NCBI GenBank assembly: GCA_048941265.1
Contig: JBHLNT010000109.1
Span: 1-13,900, forward strand
Source: Promethearchaeota archaeon
Lineage (GTDB): Archaea > Asgardarchaeota > Lokiarchaeia > Sigyniarchaeales > SOKP01
Reading direction: 5' to 3'
DNA length: 13,900 nucleotides
Below the pieces are notes generated by a model. It ran no database searches and was not told where the DNA came from. It saw only the letters and a program-made list of their open reading frames with translations. This document shows positions 6,484 to 13,040 of the stretch, piece by piece (the stretch's first letter is position 1; the number at the start of each line of letters is the position of its first letter). A program made the position numbers and the translations under genes.

Positions 6484-6774
6484 ATGAAAAAATATTATTG
6501 TACCAAATGTAAAAGAAATCATTATCGTGGAAAAATATATGAAAATCATTTAAACTATAGAGAGATTAAAAATAAAAAACTTAATCCAAATCATAAAAAA
6601 AAAAAGTCTATTCCCTCAGATAGATTTATTGAATTTGATATTAACGAACTTCGGCCTATTGCTCGGCGTCAAATTCGAACGTTGGTTATGAAAATGAATC
6701 ACACTAAAAATTTTAGATTATATACAAAAGAGATTAATAAAATTATACTTCATGAAAAAGATTTATTAATGTGA
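6484..6774 (+). CDS. Small basic protein with N-terminal putative CCHH zinc finger
   Basis: CTKCKRNHYRGKIYENH = C-x2-C-x3-H-x8-H, Lys-rich linker, amphipathic helical C-terminus; stop overlaps the next start (GTGA 6771-6774). Confidence 0.75.
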   Translation: MKKYYCTKCKRNHYRGKIYENHLNYREIKNKKLNPNHKKKKSIPSDRFIEFDINELRPIARRQIRTLVMKMNHTKNFRLYTKEINKIILHEKDLLM

Positions 6775-8105
6775 AAAAGTTGCGGATTAAAATTTTTGAA
6801 GAATTGCTACCATTGGTAAATGTTTTTAAGACTATTGAAAAATCAATCAAATCTAAATTTAGAATCTCCAATAACTCTCAAATGTTCAAAAACTCTTTTC
6901 TAATCATAGCAATAAACCAAGAAAGTTATGCATTAATTATTCGTGGGTCCAAAGGAATACTGAAAAATAGATTAATAATTTCAGTAGTCGTATTAGATGT
7001 AAATGCAATTCCGATACTTTTAAAATCTAAAAAAAATCTGAAAGTCATTGAAAATTACTTATATGAATTGGTTATAACAGAATTTAATAATAAAGTACTC
7101 GATCCATTTAAAAAAATATTAGTTGAAAGCAAAGTTAATTCACAACATAAAAATAAGATTTTAATCGCTGAAAGGAATGTTTTAAATCAAATATTACAAG
7201 TTTTATACGAGGAATTTAATTATAATGATGATTTAATGAAATTTCCTTTTTCTGTCTTCAATATTGACAGGACTTGGGAATTTTGGGTAAAAATTTATGG
7301 TAAATATTTAAAGAAAATAGAAACTACTATAGTAAAAAGTAATAAAAACGCAATTAAAACCTATAAATATTATGATTTTGCTCTACCAAAAGAATTTTTT
7401 CCAAGAATTATTGATTTAATTATAATAGAGAATTCAAAAGGAACAAAGAATTCGATAAATATAAGAGAAACTAAAGAATTGGATAAAGAAGCGGATACAG
7501 ATGATAATTTCAAAAAGTCTGTAAAAAGGATTGGATTTATTTATGCTTATAAAAAACGAAGCCCAATGAGGCTTATTGATGTTCTTAAATTAACTGAAGA
7601 GGTAATAAAATTCATTCATGTATTTAAGAATAAAAGTATTAACAAAGATACCGAAATAAAACCAGTTATAATCTTATTATCCCTTTATGGATATGAGAAA
7701 AGAATAGGGAAATATTTGAGAGACCATTTGCATCATGACTATAAACACTTTATTCCGATATTTATTGCACCTCCAATAGATAATGAAATCTGGCATAATT
7801 TTGATGCGAATAAGGATTTAAGTCAAGAAGATGAAGTAGCTAAAAATAGAGCGAAACAATATATAAATCTCTATAAAAAAGATTCAAAAAGTTATAAATA
7901 TATTAAACACAATATACAAGATGCAAAAGAGAATTATAGTGAAATCCTAGATAGGGAGAAAGAAGCGAAAGAAAATTTTGAATTTGTTGATAGATGGTAT
8001 AAAATCTTAAATATTGACAAATTAAGTGAACTGTTAAATGTAATGGACGATAAGCATAAGGATCAAGATGAAATTGATAAAATTAAAATTTTAAGTGAAT
8101 GGTAA
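6771..8105 (+). CDS. Hypothetical protein with probable degenerate PD-(D/E)xK (Mrr/restriction-endonuclease-like) domain
   Basis: 444-aa ORF coupled to both neighbours. RIIDLIII...IGFIYAYKK..PMRLIDVLKL...VIILLSLYGYEKRIGKYL follows the motif order of Mrr-type domains but lacks the E/Q of (E/Q)xK. The CDS is solid; the fold call is tentative. Confidence 0.6.
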   Translation: MKKLRIKIFEELLPLVNVFKTIEKSIKSKFRISNNSQMFKNSFLIIAINQESYALIIRGSKGILKNRLIISVVVLDVNAIPILLKSKKNLKVIENYLYELVITEFNNKVLDPFKKILVESKVNSQHKNKILIAERNVLNQILQVLYEEFNYNDDLMKFPFSVFNIDRTWEFWVKIYGKYLKKIETTIVKSNKNAIKTYKYYDFALPKEFFPRIIDLIIIENSKGTKNSINIRETKELDKEADTDDNFKKSVKRIGFIYAYKKRSPMRLIDVLKLTEEVIKFIHVFKNKSINKDTEIKPVIILLSLYGYEKRIGKYLRDHLHHDYKHFIPIFIAPPIDNEIWHNFDANKDLSQEDEVAKNRAKQYINLYKKDSKSYKYIKHNIQDAKENYSEILDREKEAKENFEFVDRWYKILNIDKLSELLNVMDDKHKDQDEIDKIKILSEW

Positions 8106-8704
8106 TGTCTAAATTGAAATTGGATTATGAAATAAATAATGTCGTCTCAACAGTTAAATTAGAAATTTCAGAAAGATTAGATCTTATAAAAATAGCGCGT
8201 AAAGCTCCTGAGTCAGAATATAATCCTGAGAAATTCCCAGGATTAATATTAAGATTAGAGGATCCTAAAGCATCTTTTCTAATATTTTCAACGGGTAGTA
8301 TGGTAATAACTGGACTTAAAAATGTTTTATTGGTTGAAAATGCAGTAAAGAATCTATTTAAAATGCTTAAAAAATTTGGATTAAAATTACCTGAACCCAC
8401 AATCAAAATTGAGAATTTAGTGGCAAGTGGAGATTTACACACCTCTATAGATTTAAATAAAGCGGTTATTTTTATGGACTTCGCAATGTACGAACCAGAG
8501 GTTTTCCCAGGCCTAATTTACCATATGAAAGACCCTAAAGCCGTATTTCTAATTTTTTCAACAGGTAAAATAGTATGCACTGGAGTAAAAGATGAAGAAA
8601 GTATTAAGGAGGCCATTTTAAAATTAAATCAGGAAATTTATGAACTTAATTTAACATATGAGTCTCCTGTTGATGAAGAATATGAAGAAATTTATTTTTT
8701 GTAG
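8105..8704 (+). CDS. tbp: TATA-box-binding protein (archaeal type, probably a secondary paralog)
   Basis: Two repeats: NVVST...YNPEKFPGLILR..PKASFLIFSTG and NLVAS...YEPEVFPGLIY...PKAVFLIFSTGKIVCTG; acidic tail DEEYEEIYFL. ATG 8105 overlaps the upstream stop (TAATG); ATG 8099 is an in-frame alternative. Confidence 0.97.
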   Translation: MSKLKLDYEINNVVSTVKLEISERLDLIKIARKAPESEYNPEKFPGLILRLEDPKASFLIFSTGSMVITGLKNVLLVENAVKNLFKMLKKFGLKLPEPTIKIENLVASGDLHTSIDLNKAVIFMDFAMYEPEVFPGLIYHMKDPKAVFLIFSTGKIVCTGVKDEESIKEAILKLNQEIYELNLTYESPVDEEYEEIYFL

Positions 8705-9545: not shown

Positions 9546-9785
9546 TTATAATTTCCTTACTAAAATTTGTTTTGAAGCCTCAATAATTTCAATTCTAGGC
9601 AATTCTTGAATTTTTTTTACAAGATCTACTTGATTTTTTACTGTCCTCCAATTTGACTTAGCTAAGCCCGAAATTTCGCTAATCGTGTGAAATTTACCAT
9701 CTTCCAAGGCATTGTAAATACCCTCTATAATTTTCAGTGTTGTTTTTCTTTGAGCAGATTCATTTTGACTAATGTACTTCACCAT
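9546..9785 (-). CDS. Small winged helix-turn-helix DNA-binding protein
   Basis: IIEGIYNALEDGKFHTISEISGLAKSNWRTVKNQVDLV is a three-helix HTH pattern, followed by a beta-hairpin wing IEIIEASKQILVRK. Confidence 0.8.
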   Translation of the reverse strand: MVKYISQNESAQRKTTLKIIEGIYNALEDGKFHTISEISGLAKSNWRTVKNQVDLVKKIQELPRIEIIEASKQILVRKL

Positions 9786-9840
9786 TTAATAGGTAGGAAA
9801 ACACAATATTCTTCTTATTGTAGGATAAAATTTCTAAAAG

Positions 9841-9856
9841 TATATAAATGTTTTTA
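9841..9856 (-). promoter_or_regulatory. Candidate BRE/TATA promoter of the wHTH gene
   Basis: Minus strand reads TAAAAACATTTATATA; consensus TTTATATA occupies 9841-9848, 55 nt upstream of the start codon. Confidence 0.5.
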
Positions 9857-10142
9857 TTTATGATAAGGTTATAAGTTTTAGTAATAAAGTTATAATTTTT
9901 TATAATATGTTTATGCTTTATTCAAAATTCTATTTAATTAAATAGATAATAGTTTTATATTTATTTAAATGATCGTTAAATTTATATTAGTAGTTTAGTT
10001 ATAATTATCTGGATTTAGATACTTTTATGATAAACATGCATACTATAAGGAAGAATATGTCTGTTTTTAAAATTAAAACATCGGATTGTGAATTTAGCAC
10101 AAGCCGATATTTTGAATAATTTTGAAATTGTTCACATTTATA

Positions 10143-10163
10143 CTCCTAAAAACTCTTAGGAGG
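10143..10163 (+). promoter_or_regulatory. Shine-Dalgarno AGGAGG (10158-10163) largely sequestered in a perfect 7-bp hairpin
   Basis: CTCCTAA (10143-10149), loop AAACTC, TTAGGAG (10156-10162); ATG 10171 follows the SD by 7 nt. Confidence 0.6.
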
Positions 10164-10170
10164 CGATTTT

Positions 10171-11916
10171 ATGAAAGAAAATAAACATTATATATCAAAA
10201 AAGGTAATAAGGAAAAAGATATTAACTGCTTGTATTGGTCAATGTGTACATGTAGCAGGAATTCATAACTTTATTAATATTGCTCAAAAGTTAGGAAATG
10301 AATGTATATTCTTAGGTCCGGCAACTTCAATTTCAACTATTATTAATGAAATTCGAAAATGCAAACCTGATATTGTAGGTCTTAGCTATCGTTTAACTTC
10401 CTCAACCCTTAGACCTTTACTCAAAGATTTTTTTATCCAATATGATAAATTAGAAAAAAAACCAGAAGAACTATTTTTCGCAGGGACTCCAGAAGTTGTT
10501 AAAGTAGCAAAAGAATTTAGAAAATTTTCTAAATTCTTTATTGGAGGAGAGTCCAAATTCAAACTGATTTCTATTTTAAAAAATGACTTTATTGATTCTA
10601 AGGATATAACAAAAATTCCAATGGACTTAATTTCTCGTATTAAATGGAAAAAGCCATATCCGATTATCAGGGCTCATTTTGGATTACCAAGTTTTCAAGA
10701 AACAGTAAAAGGAATAAAAAAAATTGCTGGAGCTGAAATATTAGATGTGTTATCAATAGCACCCGATCAAAATACACAGGCAAATTATTTCCATCCAGAA
10801 GATCAAGTTAAGGAATTGTCTGGTGCTGGAGGTATACCGCTAAGAAAAAAAGAAGAATTTATTAAACTTCATAGAGCAAGGTTAAGAGGAAATCATCCAT
10901 TGCTTAGAATATATGCCGGAACACGAGATTTTATAAAATTGGCTGAATTATATCAGGATACAATTCAAAATGCCTGGGCTGCGATCCCGATTTTTTGGTT
11001 TAATCAGATGGATGGACGTGGTCCTTTAGCATTAAAAGAATCAATAAAACAGCATTTAGAAACGATTAAATGGTATGCGAAAAAGGATATTCCTGTAGAA
11101 ATTAATGATTCGCATCATTGGAGTCTCAGAGATGCCCCAGATGCTATAGCAGTAGCAGATATGTATTTAAGCGGGATAATTGCCAAGAATTTAGGAGTTA
11201 AACATTTCGTGGCTCAATTTATGTTTAATACCCCTCCTTCAAGTTCGTTTGACATGGATCTCGCAAAAATGACAGCCAAAAATGAACTTCTTCATACGTT
11301 AGTAGACGATTCGTTTAAAGTAATTAAACAAGTTCGAACAGGTTTAGCAAGTATGCCATTAAATTTGCAGAAAGCGAAAGGTCATCTTGCAGCAGCGACA
11401 TTCGTTCAACTTGCTCTTAAACCAGATATAGTCCACGTAGTGACATATTCTGAAGCTAGACATGCGGCAAAGCCAGAACATATTATTGAAAGTTGTAATA
11501 TAGTTAACCACGTTATCGACAGAACCTACTCTAGTAATATTAATTTATTTGATGATAAAATTGAACAAAGAAAAGAAGAGTTGATTCAACAAGCTAAATG
11601 GATTATTGATTTACTACCTCGATTAGCAAAAAATCCTACTGAAAAAGCGAATCCTTGGACAAATTACAAAATCCTAAACAGATTAGTAAAATATGGTATT
11701 TTCGACGCTCCTCATCTAAGGAATAATCAATTTGCTCGTGGTGAGATTAAAACAAAAATAATTGATGGTGCCTGCTATTCATGGGATCAAAACTTACAGA
11801 AAAAGCGGGATGAGATTGAAAGAATCAAGGATATTATGGCAAAATACCCCGATAAGTTCTCAAATAAAATAAAATATACTGAAAATTTATCACCCTATAA
11901 GGTGATGGAAAAATGA
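10171..11916 (+). CDS. Cobalamin-dependent mutase-like protein: N-terminal B12-binding domain fused to a glutamate mutase E-like TIM barrel
   Basis: ACIGQCVHVAG (DxHxxG variant), FLGPATS, PDIVGLSYRL and FFAG mark the B12 domain. The remainder follows the motif order of glutamate mutase epsilon (YAGTRDFIKLAE, AKNLGVKH, GLASMP..LQKAKG, VHVVTYSEA, GIFDAP). Confidence 0.8.
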   Translation: MKENKHYISKKVIRKKILTACIGQCVHVAGIHNFINIAQKLGNECIFLGPATSISTIINEIRKCKPDIVGLSYRLTSSTLRPLLKDFFIQYDKLEKKPEELFFAGTPEVVKVAKEFRKFSKFFIGGESKFKLISILKNDFIDSKDITKIPMDLISRIKWKKPYPIIRAHFGLPSFQETVKGIKKIAGAEILDVLSIAPDQNTQANYFHPEDQVKELSGAGGIPLRKKEEFIKLHRARLRGNHPLLRIYAGTRDFIKLAELYQDTIQNAWAAIPIFWFNQMDGRGPLALKESIKQHLETIKWYAKKDIPVEINDSHHWSLRDAPDAIAVADMYLSGIIAKNLGVKHFVAQFMFNTPPSSSFDMDLAKMTAKNELLHTLVDDSFKVIKQVRTGLASMPLNLQKAKGHLAAATFVQLALKPDIVHVVTYSEARHAAKPEHIIESCNIVNHVIDRTYSSNINLFDDKIEQRKEELIQQAKWIIDLLPRLAKNPTEKANPWTNYKILNRLVKYGIFDAPHLRNNQFARGEIKTKIIDGACYSWDQNLQKKRDEIERIKDIMAKYPDKFSNKIKYTENLSPYKVMEK

Positions 11917-13040
11917 GATTCTGCGTGATTGGAGCAGGATCTGGTGGACGTGCATTTGCTGCGTATCTTTCCTCAAAAGGTCAATCAGTCTCGCTATATA
12001 ATCGTTCCTATTCAAGAATAAGTGAAATTCAGCAAAAGGGAGGTATTGAGGTATCAGGAGAATTACAAGGGTTTTTTCCAATATCTTTGATTACACAAAA
12101 TATGAGATTAGCCGTAAAAAATGCAGATATTATACTTGTTGTCACGCCCGCTTTCGCTCATAAAGAGATCGCACTGAAGATCGCTCCTTTTCTAAAAAAT
12201 GGTCAAATAGTTATTCTAAATCCAGGAAGAACTTTTGGAGCTGTAGAGTTTCTTAGAAATATTGAAAAAATAAGAGGAAAAATCCCAATTTTTGTCGGAG
12301 AAACGCAAACTCTCTTGTTTACGGCAAGAGCATTAGAAGAAAATCGGGTAAATATCATTAAAATTAAAAATTCAGTAAATTTTTCTACTTTCCCAGATAA
12401 ATATTCAGATCTCATCTGGGAAATACTGAATGAATTCTTTCCTCAATTTATTCCAATAGAAGATTACCTTGAAGTTACTCTTAACAATATTGGTATGCTG
12501 ATTCACCCGGCTTTATCATTGTTCAATGCAGGTCCTATTGATTATGGAAAAAACTTTAAGTTCTATAAAGAAGGTGCTACACCACAAATTTGTCAAGTTC
12601 TCGAACAAATTGAAATCGAGCTTAACGAAATATTCCAATGTTTGGGTTTAAGACAATTAAGATACGAAAAGTGGGCGAAAAAATGTTATGGTATAAATGC
12701 AAATTGTATACACGATACAATACAACAGATTGAGGCTTATAAAGACATTAATGCTCCTAATCACTTAATAACGAGATATTTTACTGAAGATATTCCAACC
12801 GGTCTAGTGGCTATTGCATCATTAGGTCAATTTCTTGGGATTAAGACACCAACTATAGACGCTATCATTCATCTATCTAGCATAATTTGCGGCACAAATT
12901 TCTTAAAAGATGGTAGAACTATTGAACGATTGAAATTGGAAAATTACATAAAAGCTAGAATAAATAGAGAGAAATATTTAACAGAAGAATTAATTTTCAA
13001 TTTCGAAAGAAATTTAAGAACTAGTGAAGATGACATCTAA
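11913..13040 (+). CDS. NAD/NADP-dependent opine (octopine/nopaline) dehydrogenase family protein
   Basis: Rossmann VIGAGSGG, ADIILVVTPAFAH, ILNPGRTFGA, LNNIGMLIHP, FKFYKEG and the family signature RYFTEDIPTGLV; ATGA overlap with the mutase gene. Confidence 0.92.
   Translation: MRFCVIGAGSGGRAFAAYLSSKGQSVSLYNRSYSRISEIQQKGGIEVSGELQGFFPISLITQNMRLAVKNADIILVVTPAFAHKEIALKIAPFLKNGQIVILNPGRTFGAVEFLRNIEKIRGKIPIFVGETQTLLFTARALEENRVNIIKIKNSVNFSTFPDKYSDLIWEILNEFFPQFIPIEDYLEVTLNNIGMLIHPALSLFNAGPIDYGKNFKFYKEGATPQICQVLEQIEIELNEIFQCLGLRQLRYEKWAKKCYGINANCIHDTIQQIEAYKDINAPNHLITRYFTEDIPTGLVAIASLGQFLGIKTPTIDAIIHLSSIICGTNFLKDGRTIERLKLENYIKARINREKYLTEELIFNFERNLRTSEDDI

Follow-up and report, generated by a model that had tools for sequence, protein, structure and literature searches.

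ROSE and fourU elements, bacterial RNA thermometers with families in Rfam, limit translation initiation through a short stem of 4–7 bp, just before the start codon, that pairs an anti-Shine–Dalgarno (anti-SD) CUCC with the Shine–Dalgarno sequence (SD). To our knowledge, the cis-regulatory RNAs described from archaea are very few. In bacteria, a masked ribosome-binding site can be controlled by a small open reading frame (ORF) upstream; reported examples are an ORF in the leader of a Salmonella Mg2+ transporter (PMC8092293) and the leaderless polycysteine short ORFs of mycobacteria (bioRxiv 10.1101/834739). The locus considered here lies on contig JBHLNT010000109.1 of a Promethearchaeota archaeon (assembly GCA_048941265.1), within a stretch of 13,900 nt that we analyzed as a whole and call the window. 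It is the intergenic region in front of a two-gene operon whose first gene, P0001, encodes a fused adenosylcobalamin-type mutase. With confidence a little above even, we read this region as a structured 5′ leader that is new and confined to one lineage, keeps the ribosome-binding site of the mutase operon masked, has stems under selection, and responds to a trans-acting input.

The leader shares with ROSE and fourU the short anti-SD stem next to the start codon. It differs from them in that it matches no Rfam model, belongs to an Asgard host, and adds another covarying stem, longer than the anti-SD stem, as well as two single-stranded blocks of conserved sequence (blocks E and F, below). With the bacterial systems based on an upstream ORF (uORF), it shares a short leader frame laid over RNA structure, a sequestered ribosome-binding site of the main gene, and a peptide that need not be conserved; a candidate GTG start in block D, at the predicted 5′ end, also recalls the leaderless short ORFs. 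In contrast to those systems, the frame is a candidate here and is broken in 8 of 42 copies, no conserved alternative pairing is present, and ~22 nt separate the stop from the anti-SD, too great a distance for the SD to be unmasked directly. The titles and abstract openings of the literature reached on Asgard and Lokiarchaeota riboswitches and SD leaders describe no such element. The leader is a new lineage-specific example within the known class of SD-masking leader RNAs.

Two stems define the element:

10075 to 10113, plus strand: hairpin 1, with core 10080–10090 paired with 10098–10108, loop 10091–10097, and an A-run/U-run extension (from sequence, folding, and covariation).
10143 to 10163, plus strand: hairpin 2, with anti-SD CTCCTAA (10143–10149) paired with TTAGGAG (10157–10163) (from sequence, folding, and pair counts).

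Both hairpins are confirmed to lie exactly where an earlier note on this DNA had placed them, and beyond chance. The letters of hairpin 1 read as given there: AAAAC (10075–10079), ATCGG (10080–10084), A (10085), and TTGTG (10086–10090) on the left; the loop AATTTAG (10091–10097); and CACAA (10098–10102), G (10103), CCGAT (10104–10108), A (10109), and TTTT (10110–10113) on the right. The core comprises 11 pairs—10 Watson–Crick and one A/G mismatch—around a 7-nt loop, and its G+C content of 41%, against 20% across the 385-nt intergenic region, agrees with its description as GC-rich. Hairpin 1 lies upstream of hairpin 2 at a distance of 30–35 nt; the SD GGAGG (10159–10163) falls within hairpin 2 and is followed after 7 nt by the ATG start codon (10171). 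The segment 10060–10180 folds at −28.7 kcal/mol (z = −3.95), a value that none of 200 dinucleotide shuffles reached (−16.1 ± 3.2), so that the leader does fold better than shuffled DNA, a point on which the earlier note had let its proposal depend. The hairpin-1 segment alone reaches z = −4.2 in the window, and z falls below −2 in 36 of the 41 distinct copies taken from orthologs, with a median of −4.2.

The same architecture recurs in relatives. The mutase gene was found at E ≤ 1e-100 in 56 of the 135 genomes of the window's Asgard (Lokiarchaeial-type) family, and sister families also hold it, at lower identity. Reading the regions upstream of the orthologous gene revealed a common leader in 23 loci: two ATTTAAAT-type boxes (C1 and C2), a TATAATAATATAG block (D), a variable stretch, a T-run/A-run block (E), hairpin 1, block F (TGAATAATTGAGAAAT), and finally ACUCC ... 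GGAGG. A covariance model made from these 23 loci (R1) detected a single copy in the window's own genome (an archaeal assembly of 5.0 Mb in 361 contigs), at the locus itself; two further matches at E ~0.9 were noise, one of them being the reverse strand of the locus. Across the family, R1 detected the leader in 26 of 135 genomes, with one copy in each except for a second, paralogous copy in genome G006. The leader adjoins the mutase gene wherever the contig permits, the exceptions being that second copy and a truncated, gene-less relic in genome G128. Another 24 plus-strand matches at E ≤ 1e-6 came from 42 further loci—38 metagenome loci (from 41), of which 20 matched, and 4 fetched loci, all of which matched. 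With one copy per genome beside the mutase gene, the leader is therefore a single-locus, gene-specific element in part of one Asgard family, neither a repeat nor a regulon motif.

The two exceptional copies and the orthologs without the R1 motif have features of their own. The relic (L076, contig C31 of G128, 1583–1708) consists of block E, hairpin 1, and block F, set right behind the stop of an unrelated gene; it lacks both an SD stem and a downstream mutase gene, and is the sole copy whose "stop" triplet is TTA. The paralogous leader (L077, contig C46 of G006, 1440–1694) lies at a contig end that cuts the gene behind it, and carries the boxes, block F, and ACUCC/GGGAGG as elsewhere together with a stem of quite different sequence. 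Orthologs without the motif (L019, L018, L022, L027, L028, and L030) often have another stable hairpin at about −110 to −50; these hairpins may be due to chance and are not taken as evidence. The L019 upstream region retains an F-like block (ATGAATGA...).

Substitutions in the orthologous leaders preserve pairing in both stems. RNAalifold, applied to a 215-nt upstream alignment, returned exactly two helices, which are hairpin 1 and the anti-SD/SD stem. In A3, a MAFFT alignment blind to structure, 88.4% of cells were paired, a level that none of 500 shuffles reached (84.0 ± 1.0), and double changes occurred at 8 of 15 pairs against 4.8 (3 of 500); sliding the partner by 1–3 columns lowered pairing to 33–48%. 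In A5, whose 42 distinct copies were aligned by fitting them to the model and which is thereby biased toward it, the corresponding values were 88.3% against 83.1 (0 of 500) and 13 of 15 pairs (0 of 500), with slid controls at 24–44%. Hairpin 1 alone has double changes with pairing kept at 9 of its 11 pairs across the 42 copies. Stems of other sequence occupy the equal place—ATTGAC...GTCAAT, CTGATTTGTG...CACAGATCAG, and, in paralog L077, ATCTGATTTATGCA...TGCATTCATCAGAT—and L077, like the divergent L114 and L103, retains its differently sequenced stem at an unchanged position. We regard such replacements, as they appear in the alignments, as more telling than the shuffle statistics. An all-against-all covariation scan yielded only isolated, clade-correlated column pairs and no further stacked pairs.

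The half-changed pairs indicate the molecule on which this selection probably acts. In hairpin 1, they number 30 G·U and 3 A·C among 23 copies and 45 G·U and 7 A·C among 42, beside 349 Watson–Crick pairs; C>T changes in general outnumber G>A on this strand only 1.6-fold. The intermediates from C-G to U-A and from G-C to A-U thus run via G·U, not A·C. A symmetric duplex predicts equal numbers, and the asymmetry therefore points to RNA on the plus strand rather than to a DNA operator. With both hairpins covarying and the intermediates skewed in this way, the earlier proposal of a structured RNA leader before a B12-type enzyme gene, kept paired in orthologs, is supported.

Hairpin 2 also does what had been proposed for it, namely hide the SD. 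The CUCC:GGAG pairing is present in nearly all copies (94.6% of cells paired in A3 and ~96% in the 42 copies). For the SD, the computed pairing probability reaches a median of 0.97 in 40 copies, a count that omits one SD-less copy and the G128 relic, vs. 0.57 in 447 genes of the genome; 24 of these 40 copies exceed the 90th percentile of that background. A CTCC placed 3–22 nt before the SD is found in only 6 of the 455 genes of the genome that have a GGAG SD. Given the high pairing probability and the rarity of this layout, predicted masking of the ribosome-binding site is thus an unusual and conserved trait of the leader, which has an SD paired with an upstream anti-SD in ortholog after ortholog, as an SD-sequestering leader does.

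The remaining conserved blocks are as follows:

9962 to 9975, no strand assigned: box C1, TATTTAAATGATCG, a nearly invariant A/T box (columns of alignment A1).
9976 to 9990, plus strand: box C2, with TTTATATT at 9981–9988 and ATATTTAAATAT in most orthologs (invariant columns of A1).
10000 to 10012, plus strand: block D, TATAATTATCTGG, a conserved A/T stretch ending in a nearly invariant G at 10012.
10056 to 10079, plus strand: block E, TATGTCTGTTTTTAAAATTAAAAC, a conserved pyrimidine/T-run followed by an A-run and holding an ATG at 10057 (A1 and A3).
10113 to 10130, plus strand: block F, TGAATAATTTTGAAATTG (consensus TGAATAATTGAGAAAT), conserved and single-stranded, including a stop triplet at 10117–10119 (A3).

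Boxes C1 and C2 were recognizable and present, respectively, in all 9 divergent loci examined. Archaeal promoters have a TATA box centered near −26/−27, and because of this geometry C2 is the best candidate for the TATA box of the operon; C1 may serve the divergent gene as its TATA box or be bound by a factor. The nearly invariant positions of block D in the first row of A1 are T47, A48, A52, T55, and G57, the last of which is window position 10012, 27 nt from the center of C2. Transcription is therefore predicted to start near 10012 and to yield a leader of ~159 nt, with block D as a putative promoter-proximal element. This best promoter candidate lies, as the earlier note had said the start must, upstream of ~10070. 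The resemblance of block E to a TATA box differs from copy to copy (poor in L093, L114, and L019; canonical TTTATATA in L077), and block F is kept in the paralogous L077 and recognizable in L019. TATA-like words before 720 SD-supported starts, and in a 258-gene A/T-rich subset, had no positional peak, so typical leader lengths are not derivable; this suggests very variable leader lengths in the genome. A run of aragorn without intron search found just 10 tRNA genes in the 5.0 Mb, too few to serve as a promoter guide.

One reading frame crosses hairpin 1:

10057 to 10119, plus strand: candidate uORF of 20 codons (MSVFKIKTSDCEFSTSRYFE), from ATG 10057 through hairpin 1 to TAA 10117–10119.

Further in-frame starts upstream would lengthen this frame in the window to 30 codons at most. 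Its stop column is strongly conserved across the 42 copies (TAA in 34, TGA in 5, TAG in 2, and TTA in 1, the gene-less relic), which gives a stop codon in 41, and the start column reads ATG in 22, TTG in 6, and another triplet in 14. No stop interrupts it across the stem in 35 of 42 copies, and an in-frame ATG, GTG, or TTG precedes the stem in 34 (ATG in 29). It contains 4 stops in 704 codons vs. 60 and 63 in the other two frames; a column-permutation null expects 10.8, a difference that is suggestive under a poorly calibrated null. The stop lies 8–10 nt behind the hairpin-1 stem. The encoded peptide is not conserved across copies; the synonymous fraction is lowest in this frame (0.156 vs. 0.213 and 0.245), and third positions are not the most variable (entropy 0.82/0.94/0.68 by codon position). 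Judged by this substitution pattern, the upstream peptide is therefore not under selection. The conserved stop triplet hints at ribosome-dependent control, and if the frame matters, it is possible, though clearly short of an even chance, that the act of translation is what counts.

A gene divergent from the operon flanks the leader:

9546 to 9785, minus strand: P0002, a predicted winged-helix protein of 79 amino acids (from the ORF list, AlphaFold2, and Foldseek).

P0002 adjoins the leader in 21 of the 26 leader-bearing genomes. Its AlphaFold2 model has a mean predicted local distance difference test score (pLDDT) of 87.5 and a helix–helix–helix–β-hairpin topology, and the top Foldseek matches are all winged-helix DNA binders, although weak (E 0.05–0.3). 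Sequence searches with P0002 gave no Pfam match at E ≤ 0.001 and subthreshold noise at E ≤ 10, no NCBIfam match, and nothing meaningful in the PDB. The protein is confined to this Asgard group (22 database clusters), and more divergent copies occur elsewhere next to CATTATATTTAAATA-type boxes (L121). As for C1 and C2, these ATTTAAAT boxes may act as the operator of P0002 or as the promoter of its gene. A further conserved block at window 9833–9850 (GTATATAAAAGTATATAAG in relatives), ~50–60 nt before the P0002 start, may be a second P0002 promoter.

With P0002 in place, the locus resembles archaeal operators that overlap the transcription start (TrmB-, Phr-, and MDR1-type), in which an inverted repeat lies downstream of a TATA-like box and a winged-helix gene is divergent. 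A purely DNA-level account would make block E the TATA box, set the start in the center of the palindrome, and treat the inverted repeat as the operator of a dimeric repressor such as P0002. In archaea, the operator of a repressor usually overlaps the start site, block E looks like a TATA box in many copies, and the center of the repeat sits ~24–25 nt behind it at constant spacing, with the conserved divergent gene adjoining in most leader genomes. We nevertheless consider this account unlikely. Unlike a symmetric duplex site, the repeat accumulates strand-asymmetric, RNA-like substitutions (G·U:A·C of 45:7), and its arms vary (ATCGGATTGTG, ATTGACTTGGG, CTGATTTGTG, and ATCTGATTTATGCA) while the predicted recognition helix of P0002, helix 3, is invariant (S44, N45, W46, T48, and K50). 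Five of the 26 leader genomes (G074, G096, G097, G116, and G128) have no P0002 match, P0002-like genes elsewhere adjoin C-type boxes with no stem present, block E is a poor TATA box in L093, L114, and L019, and an operator leaves the conservation of the stop triplet unexplained. The earlier note had also offered TTGTG-N7-CACAA and a Rex-box-like sequence at 10120–10137 as DNA operators; neither is kept in the ortholog alignments. The Rex box has the consensus TTGTGAA-N4-TTCACAA, and as a candidate it fell, with dimeric transcription-factor operators in general, on the same varying arms and asymmetry. A genome search for TTGTG-N5-9-CACAA as a regulon motif returned 8 sites vs. 4 for a control pattern, with nothing recurrent. 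Transcription attenuation has still less in its favor, and we hold it to be quite improbable: Hairpin 1 and its U-run would halt RNA polymerase, and a ribosome on the upstream frame or a protein would permit read-through. As in the trp and pyrBI attenuators of Escherichia coli, a leader frame covers the stem and U residues follow it; the stem has A-run and U-run flanks, and TTTT occurs within 12 nt of its end in 27 of 42 copies. The other 15 copies lack even T4, only 2 have T5, and no conserved antiterminator fold appeared either in RNAalifold with blocked arms or in a spacer complement scan. Archaeal termination does not rely on hairpins, the polymerases reportedly needing longer oligo-T tracts instead, and a pattern scan labeled hairpin 2 alone as terminator-like; the terminator reading of hairpin 1 therefore looks weak.

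A metabolite riboswitch, for adenosylcobalamin (AdoCbl) or a substrate of the operon, or an RNA thermometer acting on the SD hairpin would suit a leader that precedes a B12-type enzyme gene, masks the SD with a short stem of the kind thermometers use, and conserves the sequence of single-stranded blocks E and F. Both are very unlikely here. Rfam cmscan, whose models include the cobalamin classes, ROSE, and fourU, returned nothing at E ≤ 10 for 9700–10300, nothing that reached gathering score anywhere in the window, and nothing at E ≤ 1 for seven orthologous loci; the absence of known cobalamin riboswitch elements, already remarked in the earlier note, thus stands. Cobalamin riboswitches (Rfam RF00174 and the AdoCbl variants) mostly control B12 synthesis and uptake, not a B12-using mutase, and the leader shares with them its place before a B12-related gene but neither a covariance-model match nor a multi-helix aptamer. 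In hairpin 1, the loop and inner stem are free to vary, and the leader lacks a multi-helix junction; a metabolite aptamer is therefore unlikely, and the leader is probably not a riboswitch. For riboswitches in general, too, two simple stems with no junction, no conserved loop, and no exclusive alternative fold speak against the class. The description of the leader as switch-like finds no support in the orthologs: TGTGAA (10087–10092) and TTCACA (10131–10136) both exist in the sequence, yet the pair is confined to this window, a spacer complement of at least 6 nt to the left arm of hairpin 1 occurs in 3 of 41 copies, and RNAalifold with either hairpin-1 arm blocked returns no consensus structure whatever. 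Least probable of all, and barely credible to us, is a real small-protein gene of 20–36 amino acids in the open frame, with the stem incidental or its terminator. Such a gene would account for the scarcity of stops (4 in 704 codons), the stop codon in 41 of 42 copies, and the in-frame start in 34; against it stand the missing synonymous excess, the codon-position entropies, a start column that is not a start in 14 copies, and a frame broken in 8.

We thus return to the structured leader that masks the mutase ribosome-binding site. On this reading, an RNA of ~160 nt would lead the two-gene operon of the fused mutase and an opine-dehydrogenase-like enzyme, and its two stems would be selected for base pairing in the sense RNA. 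Because the CUCC of hairpin 2 pairs with the SD GGAG, the mutase ribosome-binding site would be masked by default and translation held low. Hairpin 1, a stem of 11–14 bp whose sequence drifts while pairing is kept, would lie inside a short upstream frame with a conserved stop. Our best guess is that the regulatory input would be a trans-acting machine, not a metabolite aptamer: either ribosomes that melt hairpin 1 as they translate the upstream frame, or a protein that recognizes the stem together with the conserved blocks E and F beside it. What would change in response is access to the masked site, mRNA stability, or both. The analysis shows that both stems exist, are conserved, and covary with a strand asymmetry, that the SD is masked in an unusual way, that the element is restricted to one locus, and that it belongs to no known RNA family; we infer the transcription start, translation of the upstream frame, and communication between the stems. 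A more specific version, which we hold only speculatively and think rather unlikely, makes the leader an Asgard-specific riboregulator in which ribosomes on a short, possibly leaderless frame melt the stem and set translation of the masked gene, or in which the stem and flanks bind an RNA-binding regulator of a new B12-dependent pathway. If true, uORF-type translational control, typical of eukaryotes, would also operate in the archaea most closely related to them; should the upstream frame prove to be translated, it would bear on what translation control was like before eukaryotes.

Several observations weigh against this reading. The transcription start is a prediction, and block E is TATA-like in many copies: A start 23–26 nt downstream of it would fall in the hairpin-1 loop, so that with block E as the sole promoter the left arm of hairpin 1 would be untranscribed. 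Five of 41 hairpin-1 copies fold poorly, and across the 42 copies hairpin 1 contains 7 A·C and 61 other mismatches. The copies are kin, so the shuffle tests overstate significance and independence, and A5 carries its bias toward the model. No conserved alternative pairing joins hairpin 1 to hairpin 2, which leaves communication between the stems unexplained. For the upstream frame, 14 of 42 copies have no start codon in the start column, the frame is broken or start-less in 8 whose stems persist, frame 2 also deviates from the column-permutation null, and the synonymous fraction is lowest in the very frame proposed.

The operon consists of two overlapping genes:

10171 to 11916, plus strand: gene 1 (P0001, 581 amino acids), an N-terminal B12-binding domain fused to a glutamate-mutase-E-like TIM barrel.
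11913 to 13040, plus strand: gene 2 (375 amino acids), an opine (octopine/nopaline) dehydrogenase-like NAD(P) enzyme (PF02317, E 7.4e-40).

Gene 2 overlaps gene 1 by 4 nt. P0001 matches the B12-binding domain, Pfam PF02310, at E 6.5e-7 with 29.7 bits, below the 32.1 cut-off, and glutamate mutase E, PF06368, weakly (E 0.0021); no NCBIfam model names it. Its AlphaFold2 model, built with 21 orthologs, has a pLDDT of 80.9, and Foldseek returned glutamate mutase E (6h9e_B, E 5.5e-16), followed by ornithine/lysine aminomutases and methylmalonyl-CoA mutase. P0001 thus combines the B12-binding Rossmann domain and the mutase TIM barrel of an adenosylcobalamin-dependent mutase. B12-binding domains have a DxHxxG motif; P0001 has CxHxxG, with C25, H27, and G30 invariant in the 21 orthologs. 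Given the domain and structural matches, the term "B12 operon" used in the earlier note is right in the sense of a fused, predicted adenosylcobalamin-type mutase.

The fused mutase and its opine-dehydrogenase-like partner constitute an uncharacterized B12-dependent pathway, and the leader marks this operon. Tight control of the operon suggests a conditional, probably amino-acid-fermenting pathway. The leader itself is a concrete motif that can be aligned, is known in ~42 distinct copies, and already has a covariance model, and it carries a testable prediction: CUCC masks the SD.

Elsewhere in the window, at 6484–8704, two ORFs of 96 and 444 amino acids without family matches overlap the TBP gene (8099–8704) head-to-tail, and both look co-transcribed with it.

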